Shown here piece after piece: positions 11,464 to 37,992 of a stretch of DNA of 64,000 nucleotides (positions within the stretch are counted from its first letter, which is position 1; every line of letters starts with the position of its first letter). Where the stretch lies: assembly GCA_900768845.1 (NCBI GenBank), contig CAAGEK010000024.1, positions 3,001 through 67,000 of the forward strand, written 5' to 3'. Made by a program: the position numbers and the translations under genes. The notes beneath the pieces were generated by a model, which saw nothing but the letters and a program-made list of their open reading frames with translations, did not search any database and was not told the origin of the DNA. Source of the stretch: Alphaproteobacteria bacterium. Its GTDB lineage: Bacteria > Pseudomonadota > Alphaproteobacteria > CAAGCB01 > CAG-977.

Positions 11464-11500
11464 CGGGAAAACTGCGCCGCGTCGGTCTAGATAAAGGGAA
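11464..11500 (+). repeat. Duplicated 3'-end fragment of a rhuM-like gene (recombination scar)
   Basis: GGGAAAACTGCGCCGCGTCGGT at 11464-11485 is identical to 10393-10414 (end of rhuM). It translates as ...AGKLRRVGLDKGNKQ, a remnant RhuM C-terminus. Confidence 0.55.
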
Positions 11501-11632
11501 TAAACAGGTTGAAACGCAAGAAAAAACAGCCAAATTTTTCATTTTTTGATTGATTTATTTTGTGAAATAATAAAATATAGTTGCAATCAAAACGATGAAA
11601 ACAGTAAGTAGGAATTGATTGAAGGAAAGAAT

Positions 11633-12991
11633 ATGGCTGATACAGAATATTTAGATGAAGAACGCAAAAAAACATGGGAGCGTATAGAAGCCCTTGAAAA
11701 GGCTTTGCCGGCAATTCAGAAACTGGCAAACGAGGCTAAAAGCATTGCAGAAAGTAAAATAAGCACAACAGAAGCAGAAGCTAAAAAAGCTTTTGATAAT
11801 GCAGAATTACTTATGCAGAAAACGGAACAGCAAAGAATAGAAACATCTAACATTCTTAGAGAAATAGAAGAGATTTCAAAAAACTACAAAGAAAATAAGA
11901 ATAATCTTAAACATGCAATAAAAATTGCAAATGAAATTAGTGAAAAATTCTATCAGCTTGCTAAGGAAGAAACGGATATATCAGAAACTCAAAATCGGAT
12001 CAAAGTATTACAAAATGAAGTTTCTACCGAATTAGGCATAGCAAAAGCATCAAGAGAAAGTATTGTTACGATTGAAGCAGAAGTAAATTCTTCTTTAAAA
12101 AGGATAACTGATTTACAAACAACTGCAAAGGAACGAAAATCTGATATTGATGATTTATATAATGAAATTATGGGAGAAGAAAAACCAGACGGGGAACGCG
12201 AAGGAGGCTTAAAAGACAAATTGAACAAAAGCTATTTTGTAATTGAAGAAAAAATGAAAAAGTATTCAGAAAGTTTTGAAATTTTAAAAAATACATATGA
12301 CTCTGAATATGAAATTCGAAAAGAAAAATTGGATGAGTTAATGCCGGAAGCAATGGCAAAAGGATTGAGTGCTGCTTATGTTTCTCAAAAAAATGATGAA
12401 ATAAAACACAGAAAAATATCTTCTATTGTTTTTACACTAGCCATTGTTTCAATGGTACTAGTTTCATTAATTCCTGTTTATATTAATTTTTCTTTGCACA
12501 TTGAAAGTTTAAATAAAATGCAAGATTTAATAAAGAATTTTCCAAAAATGCTATCTTTAGTTATTCCTATCTATTTTCCGTTATTTTGGATAGCTTGGAC
12601 TTCGAATAAATCTATCAATCTATCAAAACGTTTAATAGAAGAATATGCTCATAAAGAAGTTCTAAGCAAAACTTATCTCGGATTAGTCAAGCAAATTCAA
12701 GATTTGCCGCAAGAAAATATGTCCCATGAATTACGGGCAAAATTACTATTTAATATGATAATAACTAGTGCAGAAAACCCTGGAAAACTAATTACAGATT
12801 ACAATAAAACTGATAATCCTTTAATGGAAATTATGGATAAAACAGCTGCAGTTGCAAATGCTGTGGATAAGTTTAAAAATATTCCAGGCATCTCGCAATT
12901 TGCAAAGTACCTAAATAAAAAAGCTGAAGAAGCTGAAAGAGAATTCTTGAAAAAAGCAACATCTGAAATTGATGATAAGGAAAGTGAATAG
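11633..12991 (+). CDS. Hypothetical membrane protein with an N-terminal coiled coil, two central transmembrane helices and a C-terminal soluble domain; candidate defence effector
   Basis: 452 aa from ATG 11633 (AAGGAAAG ribosome-binding site). The region is strongly AT-rich relative to its flanks. The coiled-coil-like region spans about 1-250. The two hydrophobic helices are ISSIVFTLAIVSMVLVSLIPVYINF and MLSLVIPIYFPLFWIAWTS. I recognise no family. Confidence 0.6.
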   Translation: MADTEYLDEERKKTWERIEALEKALPAIQKLANEAKSIAESKISTTEAEAKKAFDNAELLMQKTEQQRIETSNILREIEEISKNYKENKNNLKHAIKIANEISEKFYQLAKEETDISETQNRIKVLQNEVSTELGIAKASRESIVTIEAEVNSSLKRITDLQTTAKERKSDIDDLYNEIMGEEKPDGEREGGLKDKLNKSYFVIEEKMKKYSESFEILKNTYDSEYEIRKEKLDELMPEAMAKGLSAAYVSQKNDEIKHRKISSIVFTLAIVSMVLVSLIPVYINFSLHIESLNKMQDLIKNFPKMLSLVIPIYFPLFWIAWTSNKSINLSKRLIEEYAHKEVLSKTYLGLVKQIQDLPQENMSHELRAKLLFNMIITSAENPGKLITDYNKTDNPLMEIMDKTAAVANAVDKFKNIPGISQFAKYLNKKAEEAEREFLKKATSEIDDKESE

Positions 12992-13023
12992 AACACAATA
13001 CCAAAAATGATAAGGAGAAATAA

Positions 13024-14298
13024 ATGACAAAAACTAATCAAAAAATCCCTGAGAGGTGGAGTGTTACAAGACTTGAACTTTTAGGAGAATTTTCGAAAGG
13101 TTCAGGAATAACAAAAAATGATTTGATGCAAAACGGTTTGCCTTGTGTCAGATATGCCGAATTATATACAAAATTTGATTTTATAATTCCTTGCTGTATT
13201 TCATTTATATCCGAAGAAACAGCAAAAACGGCGAAACCGATTCGAATTGGAGATATTCTGTTCGCAGGCTCTGGAGAAACAAAGGAAGAAATAGGGAAAT
13301 GTGCTGTTTATATGAATCCTCTTATTGCTTATGCCGGAGGGGATAATATTATTTTCAGAACGACTAATGTAGTTCCTTTATATTTAAGTTTTTATCTAAA
13401 CACTTTAGGGCGGAAACAATTAAATAAACTTGGACAGGGGGATTCTATTGTTCATATTCATTCTAACGATTTGAAAAATGTTATTGTGCCTTTACCCCCA
13501 CTTGCAGAACAAGAGAAGATTGCGGAAATATTGGGGTGTTGGGACGACGGCATCGAAAAATTAAGCCGGTTGATTGAACAAAAGAAGTTGTTGAAAAAAG
13601 GGTTGATGCAACGCCTGTTGTCCGGCAAACAACGACTCTCCGGCTTCTCTGAACCATGGAGTATAAAAAAACTAGGAGAAATGGGGAAATTCGTATCAGG
13701 GGGAACGCCAGACACTGAAAAATCGAAATATTGGGACGGAAATATAATTTGGCTTACTCCCTCGGAAATAACAAAATTATCGACAAGGTTTGTGTCAGAG
13801 AGTGAAAGAAAAATAACAGACTTAGGATTAAAAAATAGTTCTGCTGTTTTGCTGCCAATCGGAAGTTTGATTATTTGTACAAGAGCAACCATTGGAGATT
13901 GTTGTATAAACATAAAAGAGGTTTCTACAAATCAAGGATTTAAAAATTTAATTCCGGAAAACAGCAATATTGATTTTCTATATTATATCATTTCATCACA
14001 TAAAACTGATTTAATCAGAAGAGCAAGTGGAAGCACTTTTCTTGAAATTTCAAAGCACGATATTGAAAAATTAAAATACTCTGTTCCCTCTCTTTCCGAA
14101 CAAAAGGCGATTGCGGACATTCTTTCCAAAGCGGACGAGGAAATCGACTTGCTGACTTCAAAATTGTCCGCGTTAAAATCGCAAAAAAAAGGCTTGATGC
14201 AAAAACTCTTAACCGGTCAAATCCGTGTAAAGGTGGATTCCGCCGCCCCTCTTTGCGAGCGAAGCGAAACAATCCAAAAAAGGCAGGTGACGGAATGA
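13024..14298 (+). CDS. hsdS: Type I restriction-modification specificity subunit (full-length, two TRDs)
   Basis: 424 aa with two variable TRDs and conserved central/C-terminal repeats (LAEQEKIAEILGCWDDGIEKL...; LSEQKAIADILSKADEEIDLL...LLTGQIRV). TRD1 is AT-rich. Confidence 0.85.
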   Translation: MTKTNQKIPERWSVTRLELLGEFSKGSGITKNDLMQNGLPCVRYAELYTKFDFIIPCCISFISEETAKTAKPIRIGDILFAGSGETKEEIGKCAVYMNPLIAYAGGDNIIFRTTNVVPLYLSFYLNTLGRKQLNKLGQGDSIVHIHSNDLKNVIVPLPPLAEQEKIAEILGCWDDGIEKLSRLIEQKKLLKKGLMQRLLSGKQRLSGFSEPWSIKKLGEMGKFVSGGTPDTEKSKYWDGNIIWLTPSEITKLSTRFVSESERKITDLGLKNSSAVLLPIGSLIICTRATIGDCCINIKEVSTNQGFKNLIPENSNIDFLYYIISSHKTDLIRRASGSTFLEISKHDIEKLKYSVPSLSEQKAIADILSKADEEIDLLTSKLSALKSQKKGLMQKLLTGQIRVKVDSAAPLCERSETIQKRQVTE

Positions 14299-14479
14299 GA
14301 AAAAAAATAAATCGCTTCGTCGCTATCGCTTCTGGCAATGACGAAAAAACGGGAAAAGAGAATAATGCAAAAAATAACCTCGGAGTGGTAACGCTACCAA
14401 GGCGCCATAGCACTTTCCGAGGACTATTGAGGGGTAAGATATCATTTTTCACGGATTTGTCAAGGGGGAATGAACGTCA

Positions 14480-15124
14480 ATGTTACAGTTATTGAAAGAA
14501 AGCTTTTCGGAACAACGTTTAAGCACTTATCAGCGAATAGCTGCAACAAAAGGGCTGTCTGAAGGAAAAGCAGTCGAATTATATAAAATCAATATCTTAA
14601 TTTGTGAAGAACTTTATGCCTTTATTGATTGTGTCGAAGTTTGTTTGCGCAATAAGATTCATAAAAAAATGACGGAGGCTTTCAAATGTCAAACATGGTA
14701 CGATTCCGTGCAATGGCTTCCCTTGCATCAGGACAGTCTGGATAACGCTAAAAAAGTTAAGTACCCTCAGGAAATACCTTCAGCTAATGATGTTATAGCC
14801 AGACTGAATTTCGGATTTTGGTGTCATATTTTTGACGCTTTTTATGAGCAACGTTTATGGATTCCGGTCTTACGTTTTCTTTTTCCCAATTATGCAGGCG
14901 CACCGTCGCGAAAGCATATATCCAACGTTTTCAACAAATTATTGAAAATAAGAAACAGAATTGCCCACTTTGAGCCTGTTATTAAAGACGAAGCGGATTT
15001 ACTCAAAAGCTATAATCAACCGGTAGAAGTTATAAATTGGATGAATCCGGAAATATATAATTGGTTTGAAACATTTAACAGATTTAAAGAACTTTACAGA
15101 CAACTGAAGTCTGGCGATTTTTAA
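14480..15124 (+). CDS. Abi_2-family (AbiD/AbiF-like) abortive-infection protein
   Basis: 214 aa. The conserved C-terminal motif LLKIRNRIAHFEPV (RNxxAH) and overall composition match Pfam Abi_2. It sits between hsdS and hsdR. Confidence 0.65.
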   Translation: MLQLLKESFSEQRLSTYQRIAATKGLSEGKAVELYKINILICEELYAFIDCVEVCLRNKIHKKMTEAFKCQTWYDSVQWLPLHQDSLDNAKKVKYPQEIPSANDVIARLNFGFWCHIFDAFYEQRLWIPVLRFLFPNYAGAPSRKHISNVFNKLLKIRNRIAHFEPVIKDEADLLKSYNQPVEVINWMNPEIYNWFETFNRFKELYRQLKSGDF

Positions 15125-15139
15125 AGAAAGGGCTGAAAA

Positions 15140-18100
15140 ATGACCGACTCTTATGTTCATCTTTTCTTTGATGAAGCGTGTCAATCGCAGTTGCCGTGCG
15201 TGGAAATGCTGGTCAATATGGGGTGGGAGTTTTTGCCTCTTGCCGATTTGGAAGCCGCACGGGAAAAAAATCCCGCCAAATCCGTTCTGAAATCCGTTTG
15301 CGAACAGGCTTTGGATAAAATCAACCGTTTTGAACATTTGGACAAGTCTTATCATTTCTCGCCCAAAAACATCGCTAACGCCGTTTTCGATTTGGAAAAT
15401 TTCCCGATGAAGGGGCTGATGACGACTTCCGCAGAAGTTTATGCCGATTTAATCGCCGGACGGGATTTAAAGGAATTTGTGCAAAATAAAGAATCTTCTT
15501 TCGATTTTAGGTTTTTCGATTTTGAGCATATCGAAAACAACCGTTTCCAAGTCGCTGTCGAAGTTCCTTTACGCGGCAAAGAAAACATTCGTCCCGACAT
15601 CGTTTTGTATGTCAACGGCATTCCCCTTGTCGTCATAGAAAACAAAAAATCCGCCGTCAGTGTGCAGGAAGCGGTCGTTCAGCTGATTGATTATCAAGCG
15701 AAGTTTCCGCGCTTTTTTTTGTTTCCTCAGTTGTTAATCGCGACGAACAAATCTGAATTTCTTTACGGAACGACAGGAACGCCTAAAAAATTTTATTCCG
15801 TATGGCAGACGGAGGATTTTGACGAAGAGGCGTGTCTGAACGCGATGACAAAAAAAATCGACGACGCCGTTTATCAAAAAATCCTTGCCGATTTGAACGG
15901 AGCGACTTTCAATCATCGCCAAAATACGGGAAAGAGGCTGATTTCAGAACAGGATCGCGGCGTTTTTGAGCTGTTGCAACCCGTCAGATTGATGCGGCTG
16001 ATTAAAAACTTTATCCTTTATGATGCGGACAAGAAAAAAATCGCCCGCCATCAGCAAATTCGCGCCATTTCCAAAACGATGGACGCCATTCGCTCTTTTG
16101 ACGGTAATTCCCGCAAAGGCGGTTTGATCTGGCATACGCAGGGATCGGGAAAAACGTTGACAATGGTGATGTTGGCAAGAGCGATCTTTTCGGACAAATC
16201 CATCAAAGATCCCCGTGTCATCGTTGTAACGGACAGAAAGGATTTGGACCGGCATATCCGCGACACGTTTAAACAGTGCAAGTTGAAACAGGGCGTTATG
16301 CAGGCGAAATCCGGCGCGGATCTGATAAAAAAACTGGAAGACCTTGAAAAGGTTGAAAATCTGGAAAATCCCAAAGGACGGGTCATTACGACTTTGGTAC
16401 ATAAGTTTGACGCGGCATTTAAAAAACGGTCGACTTTCAAAGACGAAGATCCGAATATCTTTATCTTTATTGACGAAGCGCACAGAACGCAAACGGGACA
16501 GGCCAATGCGAACATGGGAAAAATCCTGCCGAACGCGTGCGTCATCGCTTTTACCGGAACGCCCTTGATGAAAGGGGAACACGCCAGTTATCTGAAATAC
16601 GGGGGTTATATCGACAAATATACGATAGACGAAGCCTTGCACGATAAAAATATTCTGCCGTTGATGTATGAACAACGTCAAATCCGGTTTGAACAGTATG
16701 AAGGGTTGGTCAGGAAAAAGATCGATGATGACGAGGATTTTAAAAAGCTGTCCGATGAAAACAGGAAAAAATTACAGCAGGAAATCAAAGCGCGTGTTCT
16801 GTTCGAGCTTGACGACGTCGTTTCGGATATCGGCAAAGATATACAAAAGCATTTTATGAAAAACGCTTTTCTGACGGATGGAACGCCGAACGGATTTAAA
16901 GCGCAACTTGTCACGCCGTCCAAGGCTTCCGCCGTTAAATTTCAGCATTTTTTTGAAAATCAAACAGATATCGAAACCGCCGTCGTCATTTCAAACGAAG
17001 TCGGTAAAAATGAAAAGGATATTGAAGAAAAAAAAGAAGTTCGCGAGTTCCTGAAAGAAAAAACGGAAAAATCAGGAACATTGGACAAGTACGAAGAACA
17101 ATGTATCGACAGTTTTACGAACAACGATGACGGGATTCAAATTCTGATCGTTGTTGATAAACTCTTGACGGGGTTTGACGCGCCCAGAAACACTTTTTTG
17201 TATTTATTGCGCCCGTTGCAGGATCACAACCTGTTACAGGCGATTGCCCGCGTCAACCGTTTGTGCGATGAAACAAAAGAACAGAAAACGGCGGGATTTA
17301 TCATCGACTATTCCAAAAATCAGGAACATATCACGGACGCGATGCGGTTGTTTTCCAAATACAATCAGGAAGACGTCGCCGGAGCTTTAGAGGATTTGAA
17401 TAAAAAAATCGACGAACTGGACGGTTGTTATCAGGACGTGATCCGCTTGTTCAAACACTTGAAAAACTCGATCGATGAGGAAGAATATATCAGGGCTTTG
17501 GCAGATGAAGAGGCTAGAAAAGATTTTTATAAAAAACTGAACCGCTTTATTTCCGTATTTTCGGAAGCCGTGCTTTTCCGCGATTTTGAAACGACTTTCG
17601 GAAATGAAAAATCGGCTTTGTATAAGAAGCAATCCTTAAAGTTTTTGAACATCAAAAAATCCGCTGTTTGCCGTTATGCCGATGTGGTCGATTTGAGCGT
17701 CTACCGGCAAAAAATATACCGTGTTTTACAATCTGCCGTCAGTGTTGAGGAAATTAAAGAAGTTACTCAAAGCGTCGATATTATGAACCTGAACGGCATG
17801 AAAAAAGATCTGGAAAAGTTTTCTCCGAAATCCGCCGCGGAAGCCATGCTCGCGAACATGACGAGAAAGACTTCCGTTCTGATGGAAACCGATCCCGAAT
17901 TTTATAAGTCTTTTTATGAGAAAATTCAGGAGTTGATTGAAAAGCTGAACAAGGCCGACGCCGATTACGAAGAATTGTTTTCGGATGCGCAAGTCTTACA
18001 GCAGGAATTGATCAACCATGAATGCGAAAAATCTTCCGCAGACAGAACCGCGGATTTGTTCTACCGCAATTTGAGCCCCTTGTTTGAAAAAATCAAAGAT

Positions 18101-18322
18101 CGAAACTTACAGGAGGAAATCGGGAAACTGACGGATTTCTTCAAAAAGAATTTGATTGTCGAATGGTCGGTCAATGATGAAACGCAACGTATGCTCAAAA
18201 CGAAAATCGACGATTATCTGTATGATACTTACGGCGCGATTTTGAACGATACTTCGTGGGATATTGCCGAAGCTTTGATGAATTTGTCTTTGCATAACAA
18301 AGAGCTGTTCGATGTCCGATAA
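15140..18322 (+). CDS. hsdR: Type I restriction endonuclease R subunit (helicase/nuclease)
   Basis: 1060 aa. N-terminal nuclease region (VVIENKK), SF2 helicase motifs I (HTQGSGKTLTM) and II (FIFIDEAHRTQTG), and a C-terminal HsdR helical domain. Confidence 0.9.
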   Translation: MTDSYVHLFFDEACQSQLPCVEMLVNMGWEFLPLADLEAAREKNPAKSVLKSVCEQALDKINRFEHLDKSYHFSPKNIANAVFDLENFPMKGLMTTSAEVYADLIAGRDLKEFVQNKESSFDFRFFDFEHIENNRFQVAVEVPLRGKENIRPDIVLYVNGIPLVVIENKKSAVSVQEAVVQLIDYQAKFPRFFLFPQLLIATNKSEFLYGTTGTPKKFYSVWQTEDFDEEACLNAMTKKIDDAVYQKILADLNGATFNHRQNTGKRLISEQDRGVFELLQPVRLMRLIKNFILYDADKKKIARHQQIRAISKTMDAIRSFDGNSRKGGLIWHTQGSGKTLTMVMLARAIFSDKSIKDPRVIVVTDRKDLDRHIRDTFKQCKLKQGVMQAKSGADLIKKLEDLEKVENLENPKGRVITTLVHKFDAAFKKRSTFKDEDPNIFIFIDEAHRTQTGQANANMGKILPNACVIAFTGTPLMKGEHASYLKYGGYIDKYTIDEALHDKNILPLMYEQRQIRFEQYEGLVRKKIDDDEDFKKLSDENRKKLQQEIKARVLFELDDVVSDIGKDIQKHFMKNAFLTDGTPNGFKAQLVTPSKASAVKFQHFFENQTDIETAVVISNEVGKNEKDIEEKKEVREFLKEKTEKSGTLDKYEEQCIDSFTNNDDGIQILIVVDKLLTGFDAPRNTFLYLLRPLQDHNLLQAIARVNRLCDETKEQKTAGFIIDYSKNQEHITDAMRLFSKYNQEDVAGALEDLNKKIDELDGCYQDVIRLFKHLKNSIDEEEYIRALADEEARKDFYKKLNRFISVFSEAVLFRDFETTFGNEKSALYKKQSLKFLNIKKSAVCRYADVVDLSVYRQKIYRVLQSAVSVEEIKEVTQSVDIMNLNGMKKDLEKFSPKSAAEAMLANMTRKTSVLMETDPEFYKSFYEKIQELIEKLNKADADYEELFSDAQVLQQELINHECEKSSADRTADLFYRNLSPLFEKIKDRNLQEEIGKLTDFFKKNLIVEWSVNDETQRMLKTKIDDYLYDTYGAILNDTSWDIAEALMNLSLHNKELFDVR

Positions 18323-19025
18323 ACAAATATCCGTAGGGCAAAAAATTTATAATTATAACTTGTTGCTGTCTGAACGGAAAACGGCAACGATTTATATTTC
18401 AAACGATGCAAAGATTACTGTAAAAGCTCCGCTCAATGTCAGCATCGGCCGTATAGAAACATTTATCCGGCAAAAAGCAAAGTGGATTGCCGAGCAATTG
18501 GAAGAAGTGGAAAAATACAGGCAAATTTCCGATCGGAACAAATATTTGTCCGGTTCCGCTTTGCTTTATCTGGGGCGACAATACAAAGTCATTGTCAATC
18601 CCGCCCTTGAGCAGGAAAAGGTTCAACTGTTAAAAAACCGGATCGTTATTTTTACGAAACAGAACGTTCAAAACGAAATTCATAACGGATCGCTCGTTAA
18701 GCTTTGGTACGAAAAACGGCAAAAGCGCGTTTTTCGGGAGCGTTTCGCTTTGATTTCCGAGCAATTCCCCGATTTTGAAAATCCGAAACTGGCCGTGATT
18801 AAAATGAAAAACAGATGGGGATGCTATCGTATCAACGGCACGGTCGTTTTAAATCCGGAGCTGATCAAAGCGTCCAAACAATGTATCGACTATGTGCTTT
18901 ATCACGAGTTTTGCCACCATTTTTTCAGAAAACATGATGCGGACTTTTATAAAATGCTTGAAGAAAAAATGCCTGATTGGAAAAAGGTGAAAGAAAAACT
19001 TGAACTGCGATTTACATCAAATTAG
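18312..19025 (+). CDS. YgjP-like DUF45 / M48-family metallopeptidase-like protein
   Basis: 237 aa with HEFCHH (HExxH) near the C-terminus. It overlaps the hsdR stop. This family is frequently the last gene of type I RM operons. Confidence 0.8.
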   Translation: MSDKQISVGQKIYNYNLLLSERKTATIYISNDAKITVKAPLNVSIGRIETFIRQKAKWIAEQLEEVEKYRQISDRNKYLSGSALLYLGRQYKVIVNPALEQEKVQLLKNRIVIFTKQNVQNEIHNGSLVKLWYEKRQKRVFRERFALISEQFPDFENPKLAVIKMKNRWGCYRINGTVVLNPELIKASKQCIDYVLYHEFCHHFFRKHDADFYKMLEEKMPDWKKVKEKLELRFTSN

Positions 19026-19373: not shown

Positions 19374-21503
19374 ATGACCGAAACATCGGATAGCGGATTA
19401 TTATGTTTGAGCGTGATGGCGCAATTATTTGAGCGCAAGACCAATCCGCAACAATTACGGCATTTGTCAGGCAAGGGATCGGGGTTGTTTGACGAAACGG
19501 ATATTTTGCGCGGCGCAAAAACGCTTGATTTGAAAGCCAAGGCGATTCAAAGCGGGATGGAGCGGTTGGAACAAACGCCTTTGCCGGCGATCGGGTGTGC
19601 ACGCGACGGGACTTTTTTCGTGTTGGCCAAGTATGCGCCCGATAAAGTGCTGATTCACAGGCCGGAAAAAGGACGGCCGGAAATCATCAGTGCGGAGGCG
19701 TTCGCGGCATTATGGTCGGGGCGGTTGATTTTATTCACTTCCCGCCAAAGTTTAAAAAAAATGTGGCGGCGATTTGAAATCGCGTGGTTCATTCCGGCCG
19801 TTTTGAAATACAAAAAACTGTTCGGCGAAGTTTTGCTGTCGTCTTTGTTTTTGCAGATTTTCGCTCTTGTTTCGCCTCTGTTGTTTCAGGTGGTGATTGA
19901 TAAAGTGCTTGTCCATCACAGTTTAAGCACTTTGGACGTGATTTTTTTCACTTTGTTGTGCATGACGGTGTTCGAGTGCGTTTTAAGCACGTTGAGGACA
20001 TATGTTTTCTCTCACACGACGAACAGAATAGACGTCGAACTCGGCGCGCAACTGTTCAAGCATCTGTTGGCTCTTCCTTTGGCGTATTTCGGGGCGAGAC
20101 GTGTCGGCGACACGGTCGCAAGAGTTCGGGAATTGGAAAATATCAGGAATTTTTTGACCGGCTCGGCATTGACTTTGGTCATTGATACGGCGTTTACGGT
20201 TGTGTTTTTTGCCGTGATGCTGATGTATGCGCCTTTTTTGACGCTGATTGTCGCTTTGTCCGTTCCGTTTTATGTCGTTTTGTCGTTGCTGGCGTCCCCC
20301 GTTTTGCATAGAAGAGTGGAGGAAAAGTTCAAATACGGTGCGGAAAACCAAGCTTTTTTAGTAGAGTCCGTTTCGGCGATCGAAACGTTGAAAGCTCTGG
20401 CGGTCGAGCCTCAATCCGTTCGCAAGTGGGAAGAACAGTTGGCTGCTTATGTCGCAAGTTCGTTCAGAGTGTCCAATCTGGCGAACATCTGCCATAACGC
20501 AATCGGCTTTATTCAAAAAACGACGTCGGCTTTAACTTTGTTTTTCGGGGCAAAGCTGGTTATCGAAGGCAAAATGACGGTCGGACAACTGGTGGCGTTC
20601 AATATGCTGGCCGGTCATGTAGCGGCTCCGATTTTGCGGTTGGCTCAATTATGGCAGGATTTTCAGCAAGTCCGCATTTCCATCGACCGGTTGGGCGATA
20701 TTCTGAACACTCCGGCGGAACCGGCGGTCAATTCGGGGCAGGCTCCGGCGGTCGCGCTAAAAGGCGACGTGAAATTCAGCGGCGTTTCCTTTCGCTATGC
20801 TTTGGACAAACCGCAAGTCCTGTCCGACGTGACATTGCACGTCAAAGCGGGGGAAAGCGTCGGCATCGTCGGTTCTTCGGGGTCGGGCAAAAGCACGTTG
20901 ACAAAGCTTGTTCAGCGGCTTTATTTGCCTGAAACGGGGCGGATTACGATTGACGATATTGATATTTCCACGGCCGATCCTTCTTGGCTCAGGCGGCAAA
21001 TCGGCGTTGTTTTGCAGGAAAACACTTTGCTGAACCGTTCGGTGCGCGACAATATCGCTTTGGTCGATCCGGTTCAGCCGCTGGAAAATATCATTCGGGC
21101 GGCGAAAGTGGCGGGAGCGCACGATTTTATCGCCGAAATGCCGGAAGGGTACGATACGATCGTCGGGGAACGCGGAACTTCCCTGTCCGGCGGCCAGCGG
21201 CAGAGAATAGCCATTGCGCGGGCTTTGCTTGTCAATCCTCGCATTTTGATTTTTGACGAAGCGACTTCCGCCCTTGATTATGAATCCGAAGCTTTGATTA
21301 AAAAAAATATGGCGGCAATCGGCAAAAACAGGACGGTTTTCATTATCGCTCACAGGTTGTCCACGGTTCGGACGTGCGACCGGATCATCGTGATTGAAAA
21401 AGGCGAAATCGTCGAAGAAGGAACGCATGACGGCCTTCTTTCCCGCCCGAACGGCCGGTACGCTTATTTGTGGAACTGTCAGATGAACGGAGAAGCCGTA
21501 TGA
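19374..21503 (+). CDS. Type I secretion system ABC transporter (HlyB/RtxB family) with an N-terminal C39-like domain lacking the catalytic Cys
   Basis: About 709 aa from ATG 19374. End-to-end similarity to the HlyB architecture: a C39-like N-domain (DSGLLCLSVMAQLF, with Ser where peptidase C39 has Cys), a 6-TM domain, Walker A (GSSGSGKST), signature LSGGQRQR and Walker B (ILIFDEATS). Confidence 0.9.
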   Translation: MTETSDSGLLCLSVMAQLFERKTNPQQLRHLSGKGSGLFDETDILRGAKTLDLKAKAIQSGMERLEQTPLPAIGCARDGTFFVLAKYAPDKVLIHRPEKGRPEIISAEAFAALWSGRLILFTSRQSLKKMWRRFEIAWFIPAVLKYKKLFGEVLLSSLFLQIFALVSPLLFQVVIDKVLVHHSLSTLDVIFFTLLCMTVFECVLSTLRTYVFSHTTNRIDVELGAQLFKHLLALPLAYFGARRVGDTVARVRELENIRNFLTGSALTLVIDTAFTVVFFAVMLMYAPFLTLIVALSVPFYVVLSLLASPVLHRRVEEKFKYGAENQAFLVESVSAIETLKALAVEPQSVRKWEEQLAAYVASSFRVSNLANICHNAIGFIQKTTSALTLFFGAKLVIEGKMTVGQLVAFNMLAGHVAAPILRLAQLWQDFQQVRISIDRLGDILNTPAEPAVNSGQAPAVALKGDVKFSGVSFRYALDKPQVLSDVTLHVKAGESVGIVGSSGSGKSTLTKLVQRLYLPETGRITIDDIDISTADPSWLRRQIGVVLQENTLLNRSVRDNIALVDPVQPLENIIRAAKVAGAHDFIAEMPEGYDTIVGERGTSLSGGQRQRIAIARALLVNPRILIFDEATSALDYESEALIKKNMAAIGKNRTVFIIAHRLSTVRTCDRIIVIEKGEIVEEGTHDGLLSRPNGRYAYLWNCQMNGEAV

Positions 21504-22822
21504 GTGACAAGCCGTCTTTGGAACAACAGTTTTTGCCGGCGGTTTTGGAAATCACGGAAACGCCGCCGTCGCCTTTGGGACGGGCGACGATGTACGCGAT
21601 TATCGGCGTGTTTTGTTTCGCTTTACTGCTCAGTCTGATTTGTAAAGTCGATATTATTGCGATAGCTTCGGGAAAAATCATTTCAAGCGGGCACAACAAA
21701 CTGATCCAGCCGTTGAAAAGCGGCGTTGTCGCAGATATTTTCGTGCGCGACGGACAGGCTGTCAAAAAAGGCGACCCGTTGGTGCAAATCAAATTCGAAG
21801 ACGCCGAAGTCAACCGCATCCGCTTGGAACGGGAATTGTTGTTTGCGTCAATGGACGTGGCGCGGTTGACGGCTTTGCTGGCGGAGAATCCTTTGAAATC
21901 GTTTGCGCCGCCTTCTTCCGCTTCGGAAGAGCTGAAAAGCAAAAACAGGATTTTGTTAAAAAACGAAACGGATAAAATCAGAACACAGTTGGCCGTCATT
22001 GACGAACAAATCGTTCAGGCCGAAGCCGAAAAGGAAACGGCTCAAGCGTCGATAAAAAAGATTGAACGCCTTCTTCCGAACGTCCGTTTCCGCGTGGATC
22101 AGTACCGCGATATTTATGAAAAGGGCAGTATTGCAAAGTCTTTTTTTCTGGAAAAAGAAAAAGAGTTGATCCAGTACGAGGAAGATTTAAACGTTCAACG
22201 CAATACTTTGGCGGAAATCAAAGCGAAATTGCAGGTTTTGGCCACACAGAAAGAGCAGGAGAAATTGAATTTTAAAAACGACGTCCTTTACCGTTTGCAG
22301 GAAGCGTCCAACAAGGAAAAGTTGTTAAAAGACGAATACGCCAACGCGCAATGGATTGACGGCTTGACAACGATCAAAGCCCCCGAGGACGGTATGATAC
22401 AGGAAATGGAAATCCACACGGTCGGCGGCGTTGTCACTCCGGCGCAAACGTTGATGAAACTTGTTCCGTCCGACAGCGTTCTGGAAATAGAGGCAATGGT
22501 CTTGAACAAGGACGTCGGGTTTGTGGAGGAAGGGCAGGACGTCAGCATCAAGGTCGACAGTTTCCCCTATACGCGATACGGCACGATTGACGGAAAACTG
22601 GTGCATTTGTCACGCGACGCAGTCGAAAACGAACAGCTCGGCTTGATTTATATCGCGAGAATTTCCATGTCGCGGGACACTGTCCGCGTGGAGGATAAAG
22701 ACGTCCGTCTTTCCGCGGGCATGAGCGTTTCCGCGGAAATCAAGACCGGCCGCCGCCGTTTGATTGAAATTATCCTGACGCCGTTTATGGAATATGCATC
22801 TGAAAGCCTAAGGGAAAGATGA
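21500..22822 (+). CDS. Type I secretion periplasmic adaptor (HlyD family membrane fusion protein)
   Basis: 440 aa from an ATG overlapping the ABC stop (ATGA). It has an N-terminal TM helix, a long coiled-coil hairpin and the C-terminal HlyD barrel (LVPSDSVLEIEAMVLNKDVGFVEEGQDV...). Confidence 0.9.
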   Translation: MSDKPSLEQQFLPAVLEITETPPSPLGRATMYAIIGVFCFALLLSLICKVDIIAIASGKIISSGHNKLIQPLKSGVVADIFVRDGQAVKKGDPLVQIKFEDAEVNRIRLERELLFASMDVARLTALLAENPLKSFAPPSSASEELKSKNRILLKNETDKIRTQLAVIDEQIVQAEAEKETAQASIKKIERLLPNVRFRVDQYRDIYEKGSIAKSFFLEKEKELIQYEEDLNVQRNTLAEIKAKLQVLATQKEQEKLNFKNDVLYRLQEASNKEKLLKDEYANAQWIDGLTTIKAPEDGMIQEMEIHTVGGVVTPAQTLMKLVPSDSVLEIEAMVLNKDVGFVEEGQDVSIKVDSFPYTRYGTIDGKLVHLSRDAVENEQLGLIYIARISMSRDTVRVEDKDVRLSAGMSVSAEIKTGRRRLIEIILTPFMEYASESLRER

Positions 22823-23054
22823 GGGGGTGTAGGTATTTTTACAGGAAATGACGGTATTTTTTATAGAAAATGTCTCGTCTGATTACGAAATGAGGCCTTT
22901 GAGTTATAAACTTAATGGTTTTATGAAATTCGCTTGAAATATGGTATTACATTGCATACACTTTTCGTAAGCGTTTCGATATCGAATTATCGTTGACGTT
23001 GTTTTTTGGTTAATTGCCTAGGTGACACTTGGGCATAAGAATTTGGAGGGAAAG

Positions 23055-23588
23055 ATGGCTTTTGAAGGCGTAAAAATGACGGAAGAGGATAAGCGATTGG
23101 TGAACTCATGGCCGGAAGAAGCCAGAAAACTCGGTCGCGATTTTTTGGAGTATCGTCTTTTTCGGGGTGATCTATTAACTTCTCATGCATCACGCATGGC
23201 AGTAGATCGTGAAAGAGGATTTTATTTTATACGGAGCGCAGTTGAAAGCTTGGAGCCAGAGGGGCCCCTTGTTAATCCGACATACTTTTTTTATCTTTGG
23301 TGGAATGGCGGATTTATTGAAATATATGCGAAAAGAGAGAGAAAACGTAGGATTATATTGGAAAATGGAAGAGAAAATTATGAAACGTATTATTTGAGAT
23401 ATGATGCATTTCAGATGTATTTACATCAGGAAAAGACAGATTATACAAAAGAATACTTATTAGGTGTCCTTAAAGAGGCGTTTGAGGCTTATAAGATGTC
23501 TGGGAACAATCCTATATTTGATACTTATGTTGAGACGGTAGTCGTTGATTTTGATAAAGTTAAACTGGAAGGCGATTGGAGTAAGTAA
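23055..23588 (+). CDS. Hypothetical protein (AT-rich insert)
   Basis: 177 aa from ATG 23055 with a GGAGGG ribosome-binding site. No recognisable motifs. Low GC. Confidence 0.4.
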   Translation: MAFEGVKMTEEDKRLVNSWPEEARKLGRDFLEYRLFRGDLLTSHASRMAVDRERGFYFIRSAVESLEPEGPLVNPTYFFYLWWNGGFIEIYAKRERKRRIILENGRENYETYYLRYDAFQMYLHQEKTDYTKEYLLGVLKEAFEAYKMSGNNPIFDTYVETVVVDFDKVKLEGDWSK

Positions 23589-23589
23589 T

Positions 23590-23760
23590 ATGACGGATTG
23601 GATTGACAGCATTGAGTGGAATACCCTTGATGATAATGCGATTGTTCGAAAATTAATTGATAATAAGGAGAAAGTAGGTGAGGCGGAAATCCATAGAATT
23701 TTAGATAAACTGTCTGTTGATGTAAATAAATTTGATGCAGTTTATGAAATATATTCCTGA
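23590..23760 (+). CDS. Small hypothetical protein (AT-rich insert)
   Basis: 56 aa (MTDWIDSIEWNTLDD...). Its ATG lies 2 nt after the preceding stop, with a GGAG ribosome-binding site. Low GC. Confidence 0.3.
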   Translation: MTDWIDSIEWNTLDDNAIVRKLIDNKEKVGEAEIHRILDKLSVDVNKFDAVYEIYS

Positions 23761-23867
23761 AAGTCTAATAAAAATATAATACAGTCATTAATTATAATCT
23801 CTTTCTTGTATTGATATGTTTTGTGTGATACGCTGACATAATCAGTATTTACTGAAAGGTATTTTAC

Positions 23868-25148
23868 ATGGTACGTCCGTTCAACACAAGAAAGATTATG
23901 ACAAGTTTATTTTTGTTTCTGGGTGTAATTGCGTCTTGTTCTATGGCAAAGAATGAAAACGTCATGCACCCCGCCGGAAAAGAAAAGGCTGAAAACGTCG
24001 TGCAATCCGCCGGAAAAGAACCGGAAATAAGACCGAGTGATTATTCAAAAACAAAAAAGGAATACGCCGCCTCTTCAGTTCATCCGTTACCGCCATATCC
24101 GACCGAAGAACAACAGAATGAAGTTGTTTTTGACGAAATGAGATATGATGGTATGCGAGAAGCTTTTGAAATAATAAATAACAAATCATATAAAAAAATG
24201 CCTTCGTATGATTGTAATAAAGCGAAAACAGAAGTTGAAAAACTGATTTGTTCGAATGAAACGTTATCCGAATTAGATGCAAAAATGGCTTTATTGCATG
24301 AATATATGCAAGATTTGTATGATTTGGAGCTGACGCCATCCAGAGGGCATTTAGAATGGTTGAAGGCACGCAATAATTTCGAATGTAAGCCAAAAATAGA
24401 AAATAAAACGGACTGCCTTATATCTTTGTATGAGTTAAAAATAAGCAGTCAGTTAGCCGTTATTTTTATGCAACAGTTATATGCTGAAGATAGCATCAGG
24501 AATCGGGAAAATCAAAAAAATAAAAAGTTAAACAGATATTGGTTTGATTTGTTTTTAAGCCAAGGTTTTTCTGTCAATTTCAGGGGGGATTTTTTAGGAA
24601 GTCAGGTTGATTATTTGGGAGGTAGCTGCCCTGTGTTTGTAAGGATGAGGGGAATTTATCATCCTGATTATTTTACGTATGCCCTTGATCATGGCGCGGA
24701 TGTTAATTTGCAAAATAGATACTGTCCGCCGGTTCTATTTTATGCAAGCAGAGATGCAGATGTTGATAAGATTTTAGAAATGGGGGCGGATGTTAATGCA
24801 GTTTCAGGAAGCGGAGAGCCTTTGTTGGTTCATCGTACGGATCTTGCAGAAAAGATATTGCCATTAGGGGCTGATCCGAACAAGGCTAATGAATATGATG
24901 GAGAAACGCCTTTGATGAGGGGGGCGTATTGGATCAAAGCGAATTATTTGCCGGCGTACATTAAGTTGTTGGTCCGATACGGCGCAGATATAACAGCCAA
25001 AAACAAGGAAGGAAAAACCGCATATGACGTTTTGGTCGAAACGTATGACAATCCCAAAGTTTATGAAGATAGAAGACAAGAACTAAAGTTAACGGATGAC
25101 GAAATGAATAAATACTTAGATGAAGCAAAAAAATTATTAAGAAATTAA
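23868..25148 (+). CDS. Lipoprotein with a DUF1311 (LprI/lysozyme-inhibitor-like) domain and C-terminal ankyrin repeats
   Basis: Lipobox LGVIASC. The DUF1311-like cysteine pattern YDCNKAKTEVEKLICSNETLSELDAKMALLHEY...LEWLKARNNFEC. At least three ankyrin repeats (GADVNLQN..., GADVNAVSGSGEPLLVH..., GADITAKNKEGKTAYD). Confidence 0.7.
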   Translation: MVRPFNTRKIMTSLFLFLGVIASCSMAKNENVMHPAGKEKAENVVQSAGKEPEIRPSDYSKTKKEYAASSVHPLPPYPTEEQQNEVVFDEMRYDGMREAFEIINNKSYKKMPSYDCNKAKTEVEKLICSNETLSELDAKMALLHEYMQDLYDLELTPSRGHLEWLKARNNFECKPKIENKTDCLISLYELKISSQLAVIFMQQLYAEDSIRNRENQKNKKLNRYWFDLFLSQGFSVNFRGDFLGSQVDYLGGSCPVFVRMRGIYHPDYFTYALDHGADVNLQNRYCPPVLFYASRDADVDKILEMGADVNAVSGSGEPLLVHRTDLAEKILPLGADPNKANEYDGETPLMRGAYWIKANYLPAYIKLLVRYGADITAKNKEGKTAYDVLVETYDNPKVYEDRRQELKLTDDEMNKYLDEAKKLLRN

Positions 25149-25202
25149 AAAGAACAGGTCAATCCCGAACGGTATGCTCGGGATTGTCCCGAAACGGCGA
25201 TT

Positions 25203-29382: not shown

Positions 29383-30177
29383 ATGTCTGCTTGGTTCAAT
29401 AAAAAGTTTTTGGCGGTAATGGCGGCTGCGAGTATCGCAGGCGCGGCGAATGCACAGTCGAACGGTACGATTTTGCCGACCCTGCCCGGTTGGGAGGATA
29501 CCGAAGTCGTCGCGGGGGCGCGTCAGGAATCGCAACAGTCCGCCCGTCAGGGACAGCAGGCGAAGCAAGGCCAAAAGGAAGTCGTGCTGGTCTTGTGCAG
29601 GGATGCGAACGGCGAACTGGTCTATAGAATGAAAGAAGTCGATTCGTCTTCGCTGACTCCGGTTCAGAATGTCGAGCAGTCGCGCAGAACCCAGAACGGC
29701 GGATCTCAGTACGCTTCGTCGCAAAACGAGGGTTACACGGACATCTACAATTACGACGGCGGTCGCGGTCATGGCGTATCCGTGACGCACGGCGACGGTT
29801 CGCGCACGACGGTTGAGCGTTCAAACGGCAAAACGTCCGTAACGCGCAACCCGCGTCAGGGCGGATATGTCAAGGTCGGTTCCGACGGTCATTATTCCTA
29901 TGATGTGGGCGTTTCCAACCCCGACAAAAAAGTCGGAGTCGTTACGACCTCCCGCAATAACAGCGGAAACACCGTAACGGGCGTCAATACGGGCAACGGC
30001 GGTCGTGTCACCGTTTTGACCGGTAACGGAGGCGTCACAATCCGTTCTTACAATCCCGAAACCGGAACGTCCGAAGTTTCCGTCGGGAAAAACGGCGTCC
30101 GTTCTTCCGGCAGAACCCGCATCAAGGGCGATATCGTCGGCGGTTTGATTAATATGCTCGGCGGCAGAGGCCACTGA
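29383..30177 (+). CDS. Secreted Gly/Ser/Thr-rich hypothetical protein
   Basis: 264 aa. Signal peptide MSAWFNKKFLAVMAAASIAGAANAQS. A repetitive G/N/T/V-rich mature part. Followed by a strong terminator. Confidence 0.6.
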   Translation: MSAWFNKKFLAVMAAASIAGAANAQSNGTILPTLPGWEDTEVVAGARQESQQSARQGQQAKQGQKEVVLVLCRDANGELVYRMKEVDSSSLTPVQNVEQSRRTQNGGSQYASSQNEGYTDIYNYDGGRGHGVSVTHGDGSRTTVERSNGKTSVTRNPRQGGYVKVGSDGHYSYDVGVSNPDKKVGVVTTSRNNSGNTVTGVNTGNGGRVTVLTGNGGVTIRSYNPETGTSEVSVGKNGVRSSGRTRIKGDIVGGLINMLGGRGH

Positions 30178-35514: not shown

Positions 35515-35603
35515 TCTGTTCCGCTTGCGGAATACGCGGATGCTTTATACAAAAACAATAGACAAAAATCATAAAACCGCTTATCCTTGAAAGCAAGAAA
35601 TCA

Positions 35604-35609
35604 TAGGGG
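35604..35609 (+). repeat. G6 homopolymer within the ribosome-binding site of the 789-aa paralog gene
   Basis: CATAGGGGGGCGCGAAGAAAATATG: the Shine-Dalgarno-like element is itself a G6 run, 13 nt before ATG 35623. Confidence 0.45.
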
Positions 35610-35622
35610 GCGCGAAGAAAAT

Positions 35623-37992
35623 ATGACAGATGTAAAACCGTTTGCCGAATTGATGGATTTGGTTAATCCCTTAAACGGGACAATCGACCCTGCGGATGAA
35701 AAATTGGCGCGGGAGGTTTTGCAGGCTTTGGAAAAACACCCCGCATCCCGGGAAGCTGTCGACAATTGGGCAAAAGCCGGATACGAAGTCGTTTTCGCTA
35801 ATATGAGTACCAAGGTTTTTCACGGATCAAAGCGTTTCATTTTAAGCAAAAGGGATACTCCGGATAAACTGGCGGACAGTATTGTCGCTTCATCCGAAGG
35901 GCTGACGTTGAATCAGTTGAAGTTTGTCTTTCCCAAGCGGAAAGAAGAGGCGGATTCTTTCAAGGATTCGCTGTCCCGCATTTTAGGAAACGACGCTCAG
36001 CGGGAACGCTACGGCAAAATGCTGGATGAGCTTTATTCCCGCCCCGAAGGAAAGAAATTGTTGGAACGTTTGGCGTTTCACAATACGCGTGTCGCTTTTA
36101 ATACGGATGTGGTCGGAGATGAACGCGGAACGTTTGATAAGCGGTATGATTGCATCCTTTTGAACGAAAACCTGTCCGGCAAGGAGCTGTCCGAAACGTT
36201 TGAAACCTTGGCGAAAGAAGCCGTCGCTTATGCCGAACGGCCGAACCGTCAGGTGTTGAAAGAGGCTTTTGAGACAAAAACGCCCGAAGAAGAAGGATTG
36301 GCGGAACGTTTGATCGAAACGGCTTATAAAACGCCTGTCGGGGCGGAAATAATGGATCAAATGGCAAAGGCGGGCTATTCGATCCACTTTGAAAACATCC
36401 CTCCGCGAAAAGACGGTACGATAACCTTCGGATTTTGCAGTTTTTCCTCTCGCCGGATTGTTTTGGATCCGAAACATCCGTTTGAAAGCATGATATCGAC
36501 CTTTGTTCATGAATCGGAACACGCCCTTCAAAATGAAAGATATGCGAAAAGCGGACTGGACAGACGGAAATTAGACGTTGCATCCATGTTTAAAAAATCA
36601 CGCGCCATGGAAGCGGACGCCTGCGCGCACGAAGCGTTGTTCGCATGGCAGATTAAGGATGTCCATCCCGAAATCTATCAGTATAACCAAAGCGACGATA
36701 TAAACCGTGCTTTTATTCGTGAAATGGAAAACAGCGGCGATCCGTCCAAATCCATGTCTGCGGCATTTATGCAATGGTATGATTCCGAGGGCAGGCAGGG
36801 GAGCTATGAAAAGGATCATTTTGAATACGCGGAACATACGGCGAGATGCGGAATAGCGCGTCAAGTGTACGGATATTTTTCCGACGAGGCGTCTTCGAAA
36901 GAGGTTTTGGACGGCTGTCTGGTCGGGGGTAAGCCCTATGTCGAGCCCTCATTTTTGGATTCTCCGATTGCAACGGCGATTAAGGATGAAACCAAACAAA
37001 AGCTGGACGCCCTGATGCTGAATTATTCCCGTGCCGTCGAAACAAAGATGGATACGTCGTTATTCAATATGGCTTCCAGAGAAAAATTGGCCGCCGAGCG
37101 TCGAAAACAGGCGGAATTGGAAAGTATGTATCGGGATACTTTCAGAAATGAAGGTTTCAATAGTGAGGAGCAAAAGGCTTTAGTTCAGGGAATATTGGAC
37201 TGTCCGGAAGGGGAAAAGGCGGCGGAGCGTCTGAAGGGCGTTAATCTGTGGTTTGAAAAATCGGACAAGCCGATGGAATATATGCCGCAGGCAAACGCGC
37301 TGATCGTTGATCCCGATCGTATTCCCGAAGCCGCACGGGAAGCGGTAAGGCACAGCCGGCTTATCGAAGGCGGAAAACTGGCTCATAAGTGCGGAAATGC
37401 GGGTTTGCTTGCTTTCAAACCTTCGTTGTTGGTGTCGCCGAAAGAGGAAGCCCGAAGGTTGCAAAGCGTTATGGACGTTATGTGTGTCCGCGAGAAAAAC
37501 ACTCCGATGATGGTTCGGGAAATGAAAGCCCTGAATTATGAAATCGCTTTCAGCGATGATATATGCGGGGACAGCATCGCTTCCGTTCCGCGGAGGAGAC
37601 GGATGATCGTGTTGCATACCGATGCTTCAAACACTCCGGAAATGTTGGCGGATGCGATGTTAAAGGAAATGAAGAAACTTCCCGAACGTCATGCCGCCGA
37701 AATGCCGGTGGCGCGTTTGGCAGCCGTTGAAAAAATGCGGCAGGAAATGTTTGAAAAGGGAAAAATCGAACAAATCAGTTCCGTGCATCCGACTGCCGAA
37801 ACTCACGGCAAGCAACAATCCGCAGAAGAGCCGGCCAAGCTGTCTCAAGCCGTCGAAAAAACGGCCGGACAACGGCAATCCGGCGCGCCGTCCAAATCTT
37901 CGTTGCACGGGGTTTTGACTGAAATCGACCAAAAACAACGAATCGGGCAACTCCGGCAGAAAATCGCGTCCGTAAAATCAGCAGGGCGTTAA
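35623..37992 (+). CDS. Large hypothetical protein, member of the HExxH...EADAxAHE paralog family (putative zincin-like domain plus extra N/C regions)
   Basis: About 789 aa from ATG 35623. The central block FVHESEHALQNERY...RAMEADACAHEALFAWQ aligns with the other two copies. Multiple Cys residues and no signal peptide. Confidence 0.72.
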   Translation: MTDVKPFAELMDLVNPLNGTIDPADEKLAREVLQALEKHPASREAVDNWAKAGYEVVFANMSTKVFHGSKRFILSKRDTPDKLADSIVASSEGLTLNQLKFVFPKRKEEADSFKDSLSRILGNDAQRERYGKMLDELYSRPEGKKLLERLAFHNTRVAFNTDVVGDERGTFDKRYDCILLNENLSGKELSETFETLAKEAVAYAERPNRQVLKEAFETKTPEEEGLAERLIETAYKTPVGAEIMDQMAKAGYSIHFENIPPRKDGTITFGFCSFSSRRIVLDPKHPFESMISTFVHESEHALQNERYAKSGLDRRKLDVASMFKKSRAMEADACAHEALFAWQIKDVHPEIYQYNQSDDINRAFIREMENSGDPSKSMSAAFMQWYDSEGRQGSYEKDHFEYAEHTARCGIARQVYGYFSDEASSKEVLDGCLVGGKPYVEPSFLDSPIATAIKDETKQKLDALMLNYSRAVETKMDTSLFNMASREKLAAERRKQAELESMYRDTFRNEGFNSEEQKALVQGILDCPEGEKAAERLKGVNLWFEKSDKPMEYMPQANALIVDPDRIPEAAREAVRHSRLIEGGKLAHKCGNAGLLAFKPSLLVSPKEEARRLQSVMDVMCVREKNTPMMVREMKALNYEIAFSDDICGDSIASVPRRRRMIVLHTDASNTPEMLADAMLKEMKKLPERHAAEMPVARLAAVEKMRQEMFEKGKIEQISSVHPTAETHGKQQSAEEPAKLSQAVEKTAGQRQSGAPSKSSLHGVLTEIDQKQRIGQLRQKIASVKSAGR

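Follow-up and report, generated by a model that had tools for sequence, protein, structure and literature searches.

Two genes directly downstream of an hlyB-hlyD type I secretion system (T1SS), in a 64,000-nt stretch of an alphaproteobacterial contig (CAAGEK010000024.1; this whole stretch is hereafter the window), are best explained as orphan immunity genes of T1SS-exported RTX toxins with swappable N-terminal toxin domains. A probability of about 0.6 is given to this reading, in which the immunity role is predicted from sequence comparison. The genes belong to an AT-rich block (window 22823-25150) that includes three open reading frames (ORFs), all on the plus strand. ORF1 (23055-23588) encodes a predicted cytoplasmic protein of 177 aa, related to the upstream partners of RTX proteins that carry an N-terminal domain A. 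ORF2 (23590-23760, 56 aa) is the 5′ stub of a giant RTX toxin gene, identified by blastp, DNA alignment and translations. ORF3 (23868-25148) encodes an exported lipoprotein of 426 aa with LprI-like and ankyrin parts, characterized by Pfam, alignment, an AlphaFold2 (AF2) model and Foldseek. The three ORFs and a sharp drop in GC content after hlyD had been described in an earlier note made from the DNA letters, and both descriptions hold: GC is 36.5% in the block and 47.9% in the whole window.

ORF2 starts one base past the stop codon of ORF1. Contigs used for comparison are designated by L numbers and homologous proteins by P numbers. ORF2 is 60% identical over 47 aa (blastp, E 8e-14) to the N-terminus of an RTX protein encoded by L005, and 65% identical (blastp, E 4e-17) to an 82-aa stub of the same contig. 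The similarity to the RTX N-terminus stops at 23731-23745, near codon 47. Since ORF2 aligns with this N-terminus and the match ends there, ORF2 is what remains of the 5′ end of a deleted substrate gene, and not the small protein of unknown function that had been listed previously. From the start codon of hlyB to the stub, window 19374-23719 is 94.5% identical to L005 6306-10662 (blastn). In L005, hlyB and hlyD are followed by a gene encoding a 176-aa ORF1 homologue, the 82-aa ORF, a gene encoding a 177-aa ORF1 homologue and an RTX gene of more than 1671 codons. The repeat unit common to both L005 copies corresponds to window 22899-23731 (plus strand) and includes ORF1, the 156 nt that precede it and the start of the RTX gene (~142 nt). 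This segment is 93.4% identical to the second L005 copy (10842-11674; blastn) and is also found inside the 94.5% match.

The same N-terminus, MT[DQ]WIDDIEWN...DKLSV, opens the RTX proteins of L001 and L018 (2612 and 2787 aa) and the RTX gene of L011, which runs off the contig end. The length of the stubs varies according to the locus (56, 82 and 20 aa). In L026, a more distant locus, two tandem ORF1-like genes are each followed by a sequence opening MADWIDAINWN..., the first of which ends after 20 codons. If the orphan immunity reading is right, a short ORF opening MTDWID... and located 3′ of an ORF1-like gene would have to be annotated as a toxin-gene stub, not as a gene. No other RTX gene was found in the window. 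As both toxin genes are gone and the window includes no other RTX gene, ORF1 and ORF3 would be orphans. A 1405-aa ORF (39297-43514, minus strand) was considered as an RTX gene and rejected: it encodes a BcrAD_BadFG/DUF2229 CoA-enzyme activase.

An ORF1 homologue is located 1-5 nt upstream of every RTX gene encoding domain A among the loci fetched: four distinct full-length genes (L001, L018, L011 and L005) and three 5′ stubs (window, L005 and L026). L003 is a near-identical copy of L001 and is not counted separately. Extra copies of ORF1 are found downstream of RTX genes in L001, L018 and L021, and copies adjoin relics of the RTX self-processing region in L019 and L021. The dN/dS ratio is 0.09-0.35 for all ORF1 pairs tested, orphans included. 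Orphan copies of ORF1 therefore persist under purifying selection in the absence of a toxin gene.

ORF1 defines a new protein family. A word-indexed search found 30 clusters, all at least 51% identical, and an exhaustive hidden Markov model search found five representatives among 1.84 billion. The named genomes with relatives, 'Acetobacter sp. CAG:977' and an uncultured alphaproteobacterial metagenome-assembled genome, are those of gut Alphaproteobacteria, with no others. Distant relatives (P0151 and P0153) are encoded by contigs of ~1.3 kb; L026 shows the ORF1-plus-stub pattern and L025 is uninformative. The ATG at 23055 is preceded by GGAGG 7 nt upstream (read by eye), and 29 of the 30 aligned homologues start with M-A/T-F; P0010 has a longer N-terminus. 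Gene callers place the start of ORF1 at GTG 23022. No match to Pfam or NCBIfam was found for ORF1, and no signal peptide or membrane segment was seen. Structure comparison of this protein, for which the earlier note had suggested HHpred or structure prediction, gave no relative (Foldseek, E≤0.001), and its profile matched no solved PDB chain convincingly. ORF1 is a probable orphan immunity protein acting in the cytoplasm. The GC of the partner genes is 31-41% in all loci examined. A tiny family with AT-rich partner genes in relatives differs from the widely conserved housekeeping genes of normal GC that had been named as the contrary case.

Domain A is probably an ADP-ribosyl cyclase (ARC)-like NADase toxin domain, according to matches that all remain below thresholds. 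For each of the four domain-A sequences, PF02267 (ADP-ribosyl cyclase) ranks first or second among the Pfam hits, with E values of 0.012-0.051. When the domain-A profile is compared with PDB sequences, a bacterial 'ADP-ribosylcyclase toxin' (9ro8_A) ranks first (E 0.016). The match spans W..vS..fA...GE.r...G..lr....f...ELP, and the conserved Trp and Glu of domain A align with a Trp and a Glu of 9ro8_A. The four catalytic residues reported for this toxin are W273, E299, W323 and E356. ORF2 retains only RTX residues 1-47, upstream of the catalytic core. When domain A (L005 residues 1-230) was used as the query of a word-indexed protein search, no match was obtained, so the domain-A alignment rests on four loci. 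The ARC toxins Tac1 and ARCtox deplete NAD(P)+, and cytoplasmic immunity proteins plug their cleft (PMC12356396, PMC12605009). ARC toxins are known from type VI secretion systems (T6SS), type VII secretion systems (T7SS) and contact-dependent inhibition (CDI); T1SS is mentioned in neither PMC12356396 nor PMC12605009.

ORF3 combines three parts. Its N-terminus, MVRPFNTRKIMTSLFLFLGVIAS followed by the cysteine, shows a basic n-region, a hydrophobic core and an I-A-S-C lipobox; the lipobox pattern [LVI][ASTVI][GAS]C is present as MVRPFNTRKIMTSLFLFLGV-IAS-C (both read by eye). The lipobox is common to P0033 and P0034, and P0032 and P0035 carry a plain hydrophobic leader instead, so that all ORF3 homologues with a recorded N-terminus have a hydrophobic leader (lipobox or signal peptide, by eye). 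Just past the lipobox, two tandem 36-nt repeats (23948-24019, plus strand; repeat search, 86% identity) encode a 12-aa linker, KNENVMHPAGKE and KAENVVQSAGKE. Two copies are found in the window and three in the sibling protein P0034. Residues 1-70 are disordered in the AF2 model. Residues 112-192 (nt 24201-24443, plus strand) form an LprI-like helical domain with four cysteines (C116, C128, C173 and C183), which are invariant in the family. This domain was delimited by alignment to the LprI domain of a 455-aa protein of L007 (E=8e-14), which itself passes Pfam LprI (24 bits, cut-off 22). Ankyrin repeats cover residues ~267-390 (nt 24666-25037) and exceed the Pfam cut-offs (Ank_4, 37.5 bits versus 22.7; Ank, 27.2 versus 21.1). 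Residues 260-425 are modelled with a pLDDT of 83-97, and Foldseek relates them to DARPins (TM about 0.7). The lipoprotein signal and the ankyrin repeats proposed in the earlier note are thus confirmed, the former by eye. Its DUF1311/LprI cysteine pattern stands as far as the four invariant cysteines and the similarity to the L007 domain are concerned; no direct hit to PF07007 (LprI/DUF1311) was obtained for any of the five members of the ORF3 family. A role of the ankyrin protein in host interaction, also proposed, found no support in any analysis made.

The ORF3 family adjoins a second N-terminal module, domain B, in two of two loci. In L007, an RTX gene with over 3326 codons follows the gene of the ORF3 homologue P0032 (75% identity) by 22 nt. 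In L022, a mobile-element-like contig, P0035 (48%) is encoded 17 nt upstream of the gene of a 1354-aa RTX protein, beside hlyB. Close homologues of ORF3 are few (these two and fragments); more distant matches are confined to the ankyrin repeats. The two RTX proteins begin with EGNK..[I/L]Y.D...GYPTHGIG. Compared with PDB sequences, domain B gives three hits out of three to T4-lysozyme-type proteins as a single sequence, and such proteins make up nearly all of the 60 best hits of its profile. The alignment falls on the T4-lysozyme segment that holds the catalytic residues E11, D20 and T26 (E 0.016-0.45). Pfam Phage_lysozyme was not hit by domain B. The 455-aa LprI protein of L007 starts with a hydrophobic leader, and its gene is followed by a 92-aa stub carrying the lysozyme motif YVDSRGIPTVGLGYA. 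LprI/DUF1311 proteins with signal peptides are predicted to be immunity or orphan immunity proteins to lysozyme-like T6SS effectors (PMC9796082, PMC12135965). ORF3 is probably an orphan periplasmic immunity protein; no module-B gene follows it in the window.

The FrpC-like RTX proteins of these loci share the repeats and the C-terminal part, and their N-terminal 165-300 residues are exchanged. The upstream partner changes with the N-terminal module: a cytoplasmic ORF1 protein for module A (NADase-like), an exported LprI-type protein for module B (lysozyme-like), two polytopic membrane paralogues for a lipase-like module (GHSLGG) and a polytopic membrane protein of 298-303 aa for module C. The lipase-like module opens a 744-aa RTX protein of L007, which gives a weak Lipase_3 hit and includes a region annotated as the self-processing module (SPM); the paralogues that precede it (293 and 257 aa; L007 3910-7936 together with the RTX gene) are 33% identical to each other. 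Domain C and its membrane protein were found in L021 (1407-2318 and 2345-2850) and L019 (10741-11637). Domain C has about 165 aa, contains GINYGIILRNCIGW and matched no family; with its membrane protein it is a candidate for a further toxin-immunity pair. The recombination junction between L019 and L001 is visible at ...GGTDYTLDPV. The exchange of N-terminal modules with a partner gene changing alongside is the behaviour of polymorphic toxin-immunity systems, in mirrored order. All loci have the toxin-like module at the N-terminus and the partner encoded 5′ of it, in contrast to the canonical layout (C-terminal module, downstream partner), and thus represent a variant of such systems.

A survey of the genomic context of homologues, as proposed in the earlier note, identifies ORF1 and ORF3 homologues as conserved upstream partners of T1SS RTX substrates; at least eight independent contigs show them in linkage with hlyBD and RTX genes. 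The block had been interpreted either as hitchhiking effector or immunity genes or as accessory factors of the secretion system. The link with the T1SS stands, and immunity is the role best supported; hitchhiking does not stand, as the link is closer than that.

Relaxase, MobC and ArdC genes are found beside the cassette of L005 (1-6300). Genes encoding a TraG-like coupling protein, AbiEii and a DUF3987 primase-like protein are found beside that of L022 (5300-7500 and 16000-21143). These mobility genes suggest that such cassettes spread on mobilisable elements.

Five sibling contigs (L013-L017), which originate from gut metagenomes (one named pig gut), have flanks 94-97% identical to the window and the same gene order: hsdR, ygjP, hlyB, hlyD, radical-SAM gene, mnmA. 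In L013, L014 and L017, the segment 22832-25011 is missing and 55 nt are found in its place (blastn). Homology restarts at 25012, inside ORF3, the last 137 nt of which are kept. In these three contigs, hlyB is broken by a deletion of ~136 nt (window 20534-20669) and hlyD by a deletion of ~149 nt (window 21918-22066). In L015 and L016, hlyD is reduced to its last 93 nt. Since the 3′ end of ORF3 survives in siblings, the window strain did not gain the block, which is ancestral and was lost from the siblings; the AT-rich insert described in the earlier note is thus ancestral cargo under loss. The locus is decaying, several stages of its loss occur in sibling strains from different samples, and the window strain carries the best-preserved form among them.

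The block would be the decayed cargo end of an hlyB-hlyD toxin cassette. In intact relatives, this cassette would export a giant FrpC-like RTX protein, the partner of its N-terminal module being often encoded 1-22 nt upstream. ORF1 would bind and block the NADase-like module A in the cytoplasm of the producer. T1SS substrates exit C-terminus first, so that an N-terminal enzyme would stay longest in the cytoplasm; ORF1 may protect the producer while this N-terminus awaits export, or a non-producer against its neighbours. ORF3 would block the muramidase-like module B in the periplasm and may shield the producer's own wall, or that of a cell attacked by neighbours. The toxin genes would have been lost here, the module-A gene being cut after ~47 codons (ORF2). 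The siblings have gone further, with both putative immunity genes deleted and hlyB and hlyD broken. The homology of the stub, the adjacency of the partner genes, the exchange of modules, the deletion in siblings and the purifying selection on ORF1 are observed, whereas the enzymatic identities of modules A and B, their binding and neutralisation by the partners and the argument from C-terminus-first export are predicted.

Several points weigh against this interpretation. The PF02267 scores of domain A (13-15.5 bits) are below the cut-off of 25. The lysozyme match of domain B spans only ~35 residues, has marginal E values and falls short of curated thresholds. The LprI assignment of ORF3 is transitive only. 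ORF1 shows no similarity to the ARC immunity family Imm74 or to any solved structure, and neither Imm74 nor Imm63, the immunity families of ARC toxins, was hit in Pfam at E≤1. The comparison covers few loci (about 10 independent ones), and every one originates from a gut metagenome. Finally, ORF1 is always located directly after hlyD, a position that also fits a secretion accessory factor.

This position is among the arguments for a different role, in which ORF1 and ORF3 would be dedicated binding partners of the RTX N-terminal domains without conferring immunity: ORF1 a cytoplasmic secretion chaperone keeping the N-terminal domain unfolded or export-competent, ORF3 an FrpD-like envelope lipoprotein anchoring the released N-terminal fragment at the cell surface. 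The gene order is also that of frpD-frpC, in which FrpD binds the N-terminal part of FrpC (PMC5472700), and the RTX proteins found here carry an FrpC-type SPM. Such a role is nevertheless unlikely. Orphan ORF1 copies are intact and under purifying selection where the domain-A gene has been lost or replaced (L019, L021 and window), whereas a chaperone without client should decay. The class of the partner tracks the predicted target compartment of the N-terminal module (cytoplasmic, exported or membrane), as expected of immunity proteins. Moreover, no solved chain was convincingly matched by the ORF1 profile or by the LprI-like N-terminal part of ORF3, FrpD included if present in the copy searched.

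HlyC is an acyltransferase of ~170 aa encoded directly upstream of hlyA, and ORF1 could by analogy be a toxin-activating enzyme that modifies the RTX protein before export. This is very improbable: Pfam HlyC was not hit at E≤1, and the ORF1 family has no invariant His, Cys or Ser, the one conserved His, that of MYLHQ, being replaced by Tyr or Asn in some members. The predicted topology of ORF1 has a long beta-hairpin at the position of the GNAT beta4-alpha3 cofactor-binding motif, Foldseek returned nothing at E≤0.001, and tandem orphan copies with 5′ stubs are unexpected for a modifying enzyme. An equally remote explanation, largely refuted, is that of an unrelated AT-rich horizontal insert, the ankyrin lipoprotein being a host effector that landed by the T1SS. 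It would account for the low GC (36.5%) and for a weak similarity to Legionella Ank effectors in NCBIfam (E 0.005-0.009, well short of the cut-offs), and ankyrin proteins are often effectors directed at eukaryotes. It is contradicted by the retention of the ORF3 3′ end in siblings, which indicates loss there and not gain here, by the association of ORF1 and ORF3 homologues with hlyBD and RTX genes across independent contigs, and by the GC of partner genes, which is low in every locus examined.

Orphan immunity genes of N-terminal RTX toxin modules would resemble those of polymorphic toxins (CDI/CdiA-CdiI, Rhs and MafB; PMC3482391). In both cases a shared trafficking part carries recombining modules with an adjacent cognate partner, and orphans, both module fragments and immunity genes, occur in arrays. 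The RTX loci are mirrored, with an N-terminal toxin module, an upstream partner and 5′ stubs as orphans. This order would be expected from the C-terminal position of T1SS signals, which leaves the N-terminus for the variable module and the 5′ side for the partner gene and the orphans. T1SS is not among the trafficking modes given for Tox-ARC in the catalogue of polymorphic toxins (Zhang et al. 2012, PMC3482391).

The frpD-frpC locus of Neisseria meningitidis likewise encodes a T1SS RTX protein whose N-terminal domain, variable and a few hundred residues long, is followed by a self-processing module. The lipoprotein FrpD, encoded by a small gene directly upstream of frpC, has a high affinity for this variable part of FrpC, which it binds (PMC5472700). 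The FrpC-type SPM is among the precomputed Pfam hits of the RTX proteins of the loci studied here. The ORF1 profile and the N-terminal part of ORF3 showed no convincing likeness to FrpD, as far as its chain is included in the PDB copy searched. Unlike FrpD, ORF1 is cytoplasmic and not a lipoprotein. FrpD and FrpC have been interpreted as adhesion factors and not as toxin and immunity protein, whereas the N-terminal domains found here resemble bacteria-killing enzymes (NADase-, lysozyme- and lipase-like).

With respect to Tac1/Tci1 and ARCtox/ARCimm (PMC12356396, PMC12605009), the best profile match of domain A is the ARCtox chain 9ro8_A, below threshold. The known ARC toxins are C-terminal domains delivered by T6SS, T7SS or CDI, whereas domain A is N-terminal on an RTX carrier. 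ORF1 matches neither of the immunity proteins known for them, Imm74 and a small, unrelated protein. In Pantoea, exported LprI/DUF1311 proteins are likewise encoded beside lysozyme-like antibacterial toxins, with orphan copies (PMC9796082). The Pantoea immunity genes follow those of the T6SS effectors; ORF3 has an additional ankyrin domain at its C-terminus, and its likeness to LprI is only transitive.

T1SS are rarely considered to deliver interbacterial toxins that have immunity partners, and the T1SS toxin-immunity layout of these loci is scarcely described. More tentatively, with somewhat less than an even chance, the loci may represent a mirror-image class of polymorphic toxins adapted to T1SS. 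ORF1 would then be a new immunity family against ARC toxins, possibly with a new fold, and the long-unexplained frpD-frpC perhaps a toxin-immunity pair. If the orphan immunity reading is true, gut bacteria deliver swappable N-terminal toxins on RTX carriers by hlyBD cassettes, some of which are borne by mobilisable elements. Genomes of this kind would have lost the weapon but kept the protection against it, a situation similar to that predicted for orphan immunity genes of T6SS effectors. With ORF1, NADase toxins would gain a new family of immunity proteins, and a role for LprI-ankyrin lipoproteins would become testable.

The genes upstream of the block encode a genuine HlyB/HlyD type I secretion pair, both proteins being above curated cut-offs. 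The hlyB-type T1SS ABC transporter gene (19374-21503, plus strand; 709 aa from ATG 19374) matches TIGR01846 with 1031 bits (cut-off 725.55) and the Pfam families Peptidase_C39, ABC_membrane and ABC_tran. Its gene call has the same length in L005, L007, L012 and L018, and it is intact in the window. The hlyD-type periplasmic adaptor gene (21500-22822, plus strand; 440 aa) matches TIGR01843 with 364 bits (cut-off 208.65). The N-terminus of HlyB is a C39-like domain; in 19374-19500, DSG occupies the place of the catalytic Cys of C39 peptidases (by eye). According to this reading, the domain would be non-catalytic, as in RTX-type HlyB.

The flanks of the block are richer in GC: 50.5% for hlyB, 48.8% for hlyD and 51.5% for the downstream radical-SAM gene. 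Only 4% of equal-sized segments are as AT-rich as 22823-25150; the remainder of these lie within the type I restriction-modification region (10-15 kb). The AT-rich spacer between the deletion junction and ORF3 (23761-23867, 24% GC) gave no blastn match with L005, L007 or L001. A GC-rich terminator-like hairpin (25160-25186) is located between the convergent ORF3 and radical-SAM genes; its 11-bp stem is followed by a T-run on the minus strand. In promoter and terminator scans of the region, the number of sites was no higher than in shuffles. A repeat search found no direct or inverted flanking repeats around the block pointing to insertion by a transposon or an integrase. No tRNA gene was found near the block and Rfam gave no match. 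A Neisseria origin, considered owing to the likeness to FrpC, was rejected, as the DNA uptake sequence is absent from the window.

A second AT-rich block (window 10000-19025, 32-43% GC) is located directly 5′ of hlyB. It includes genes encoding a Fic/RhuM-family protein (10432-11421), a 458-aa protein without family, a type I restriction-modification specificity subunit (13024-14298), HsdR (15140-18322) and a YgjP-like metallopeptidase (18312-19025). With its restriction-modification genes directly upstream of hlyB, this block indicates that the T1SS cassette abuts a defence island. A perfect 17-nt inverted repeat, TTTCGCTTTGATTTCCG, has its arms in ygjP (18743-18759) and hlyD (22212-22228), 3.4 kb apart, probably by chance. 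Farther downstream, a 264-aa Gly/Ser/Asn/Thr-rich protein (29383-30177) has a signal-peptide-like N-terminus and no family match. Two adjacent genes (35587-38916) encode putative DUF6782 metallopeptidases of 801 and 303 aa; like the 1405-aa CoA-enzyme activase, these are apparently unrelated to the block.

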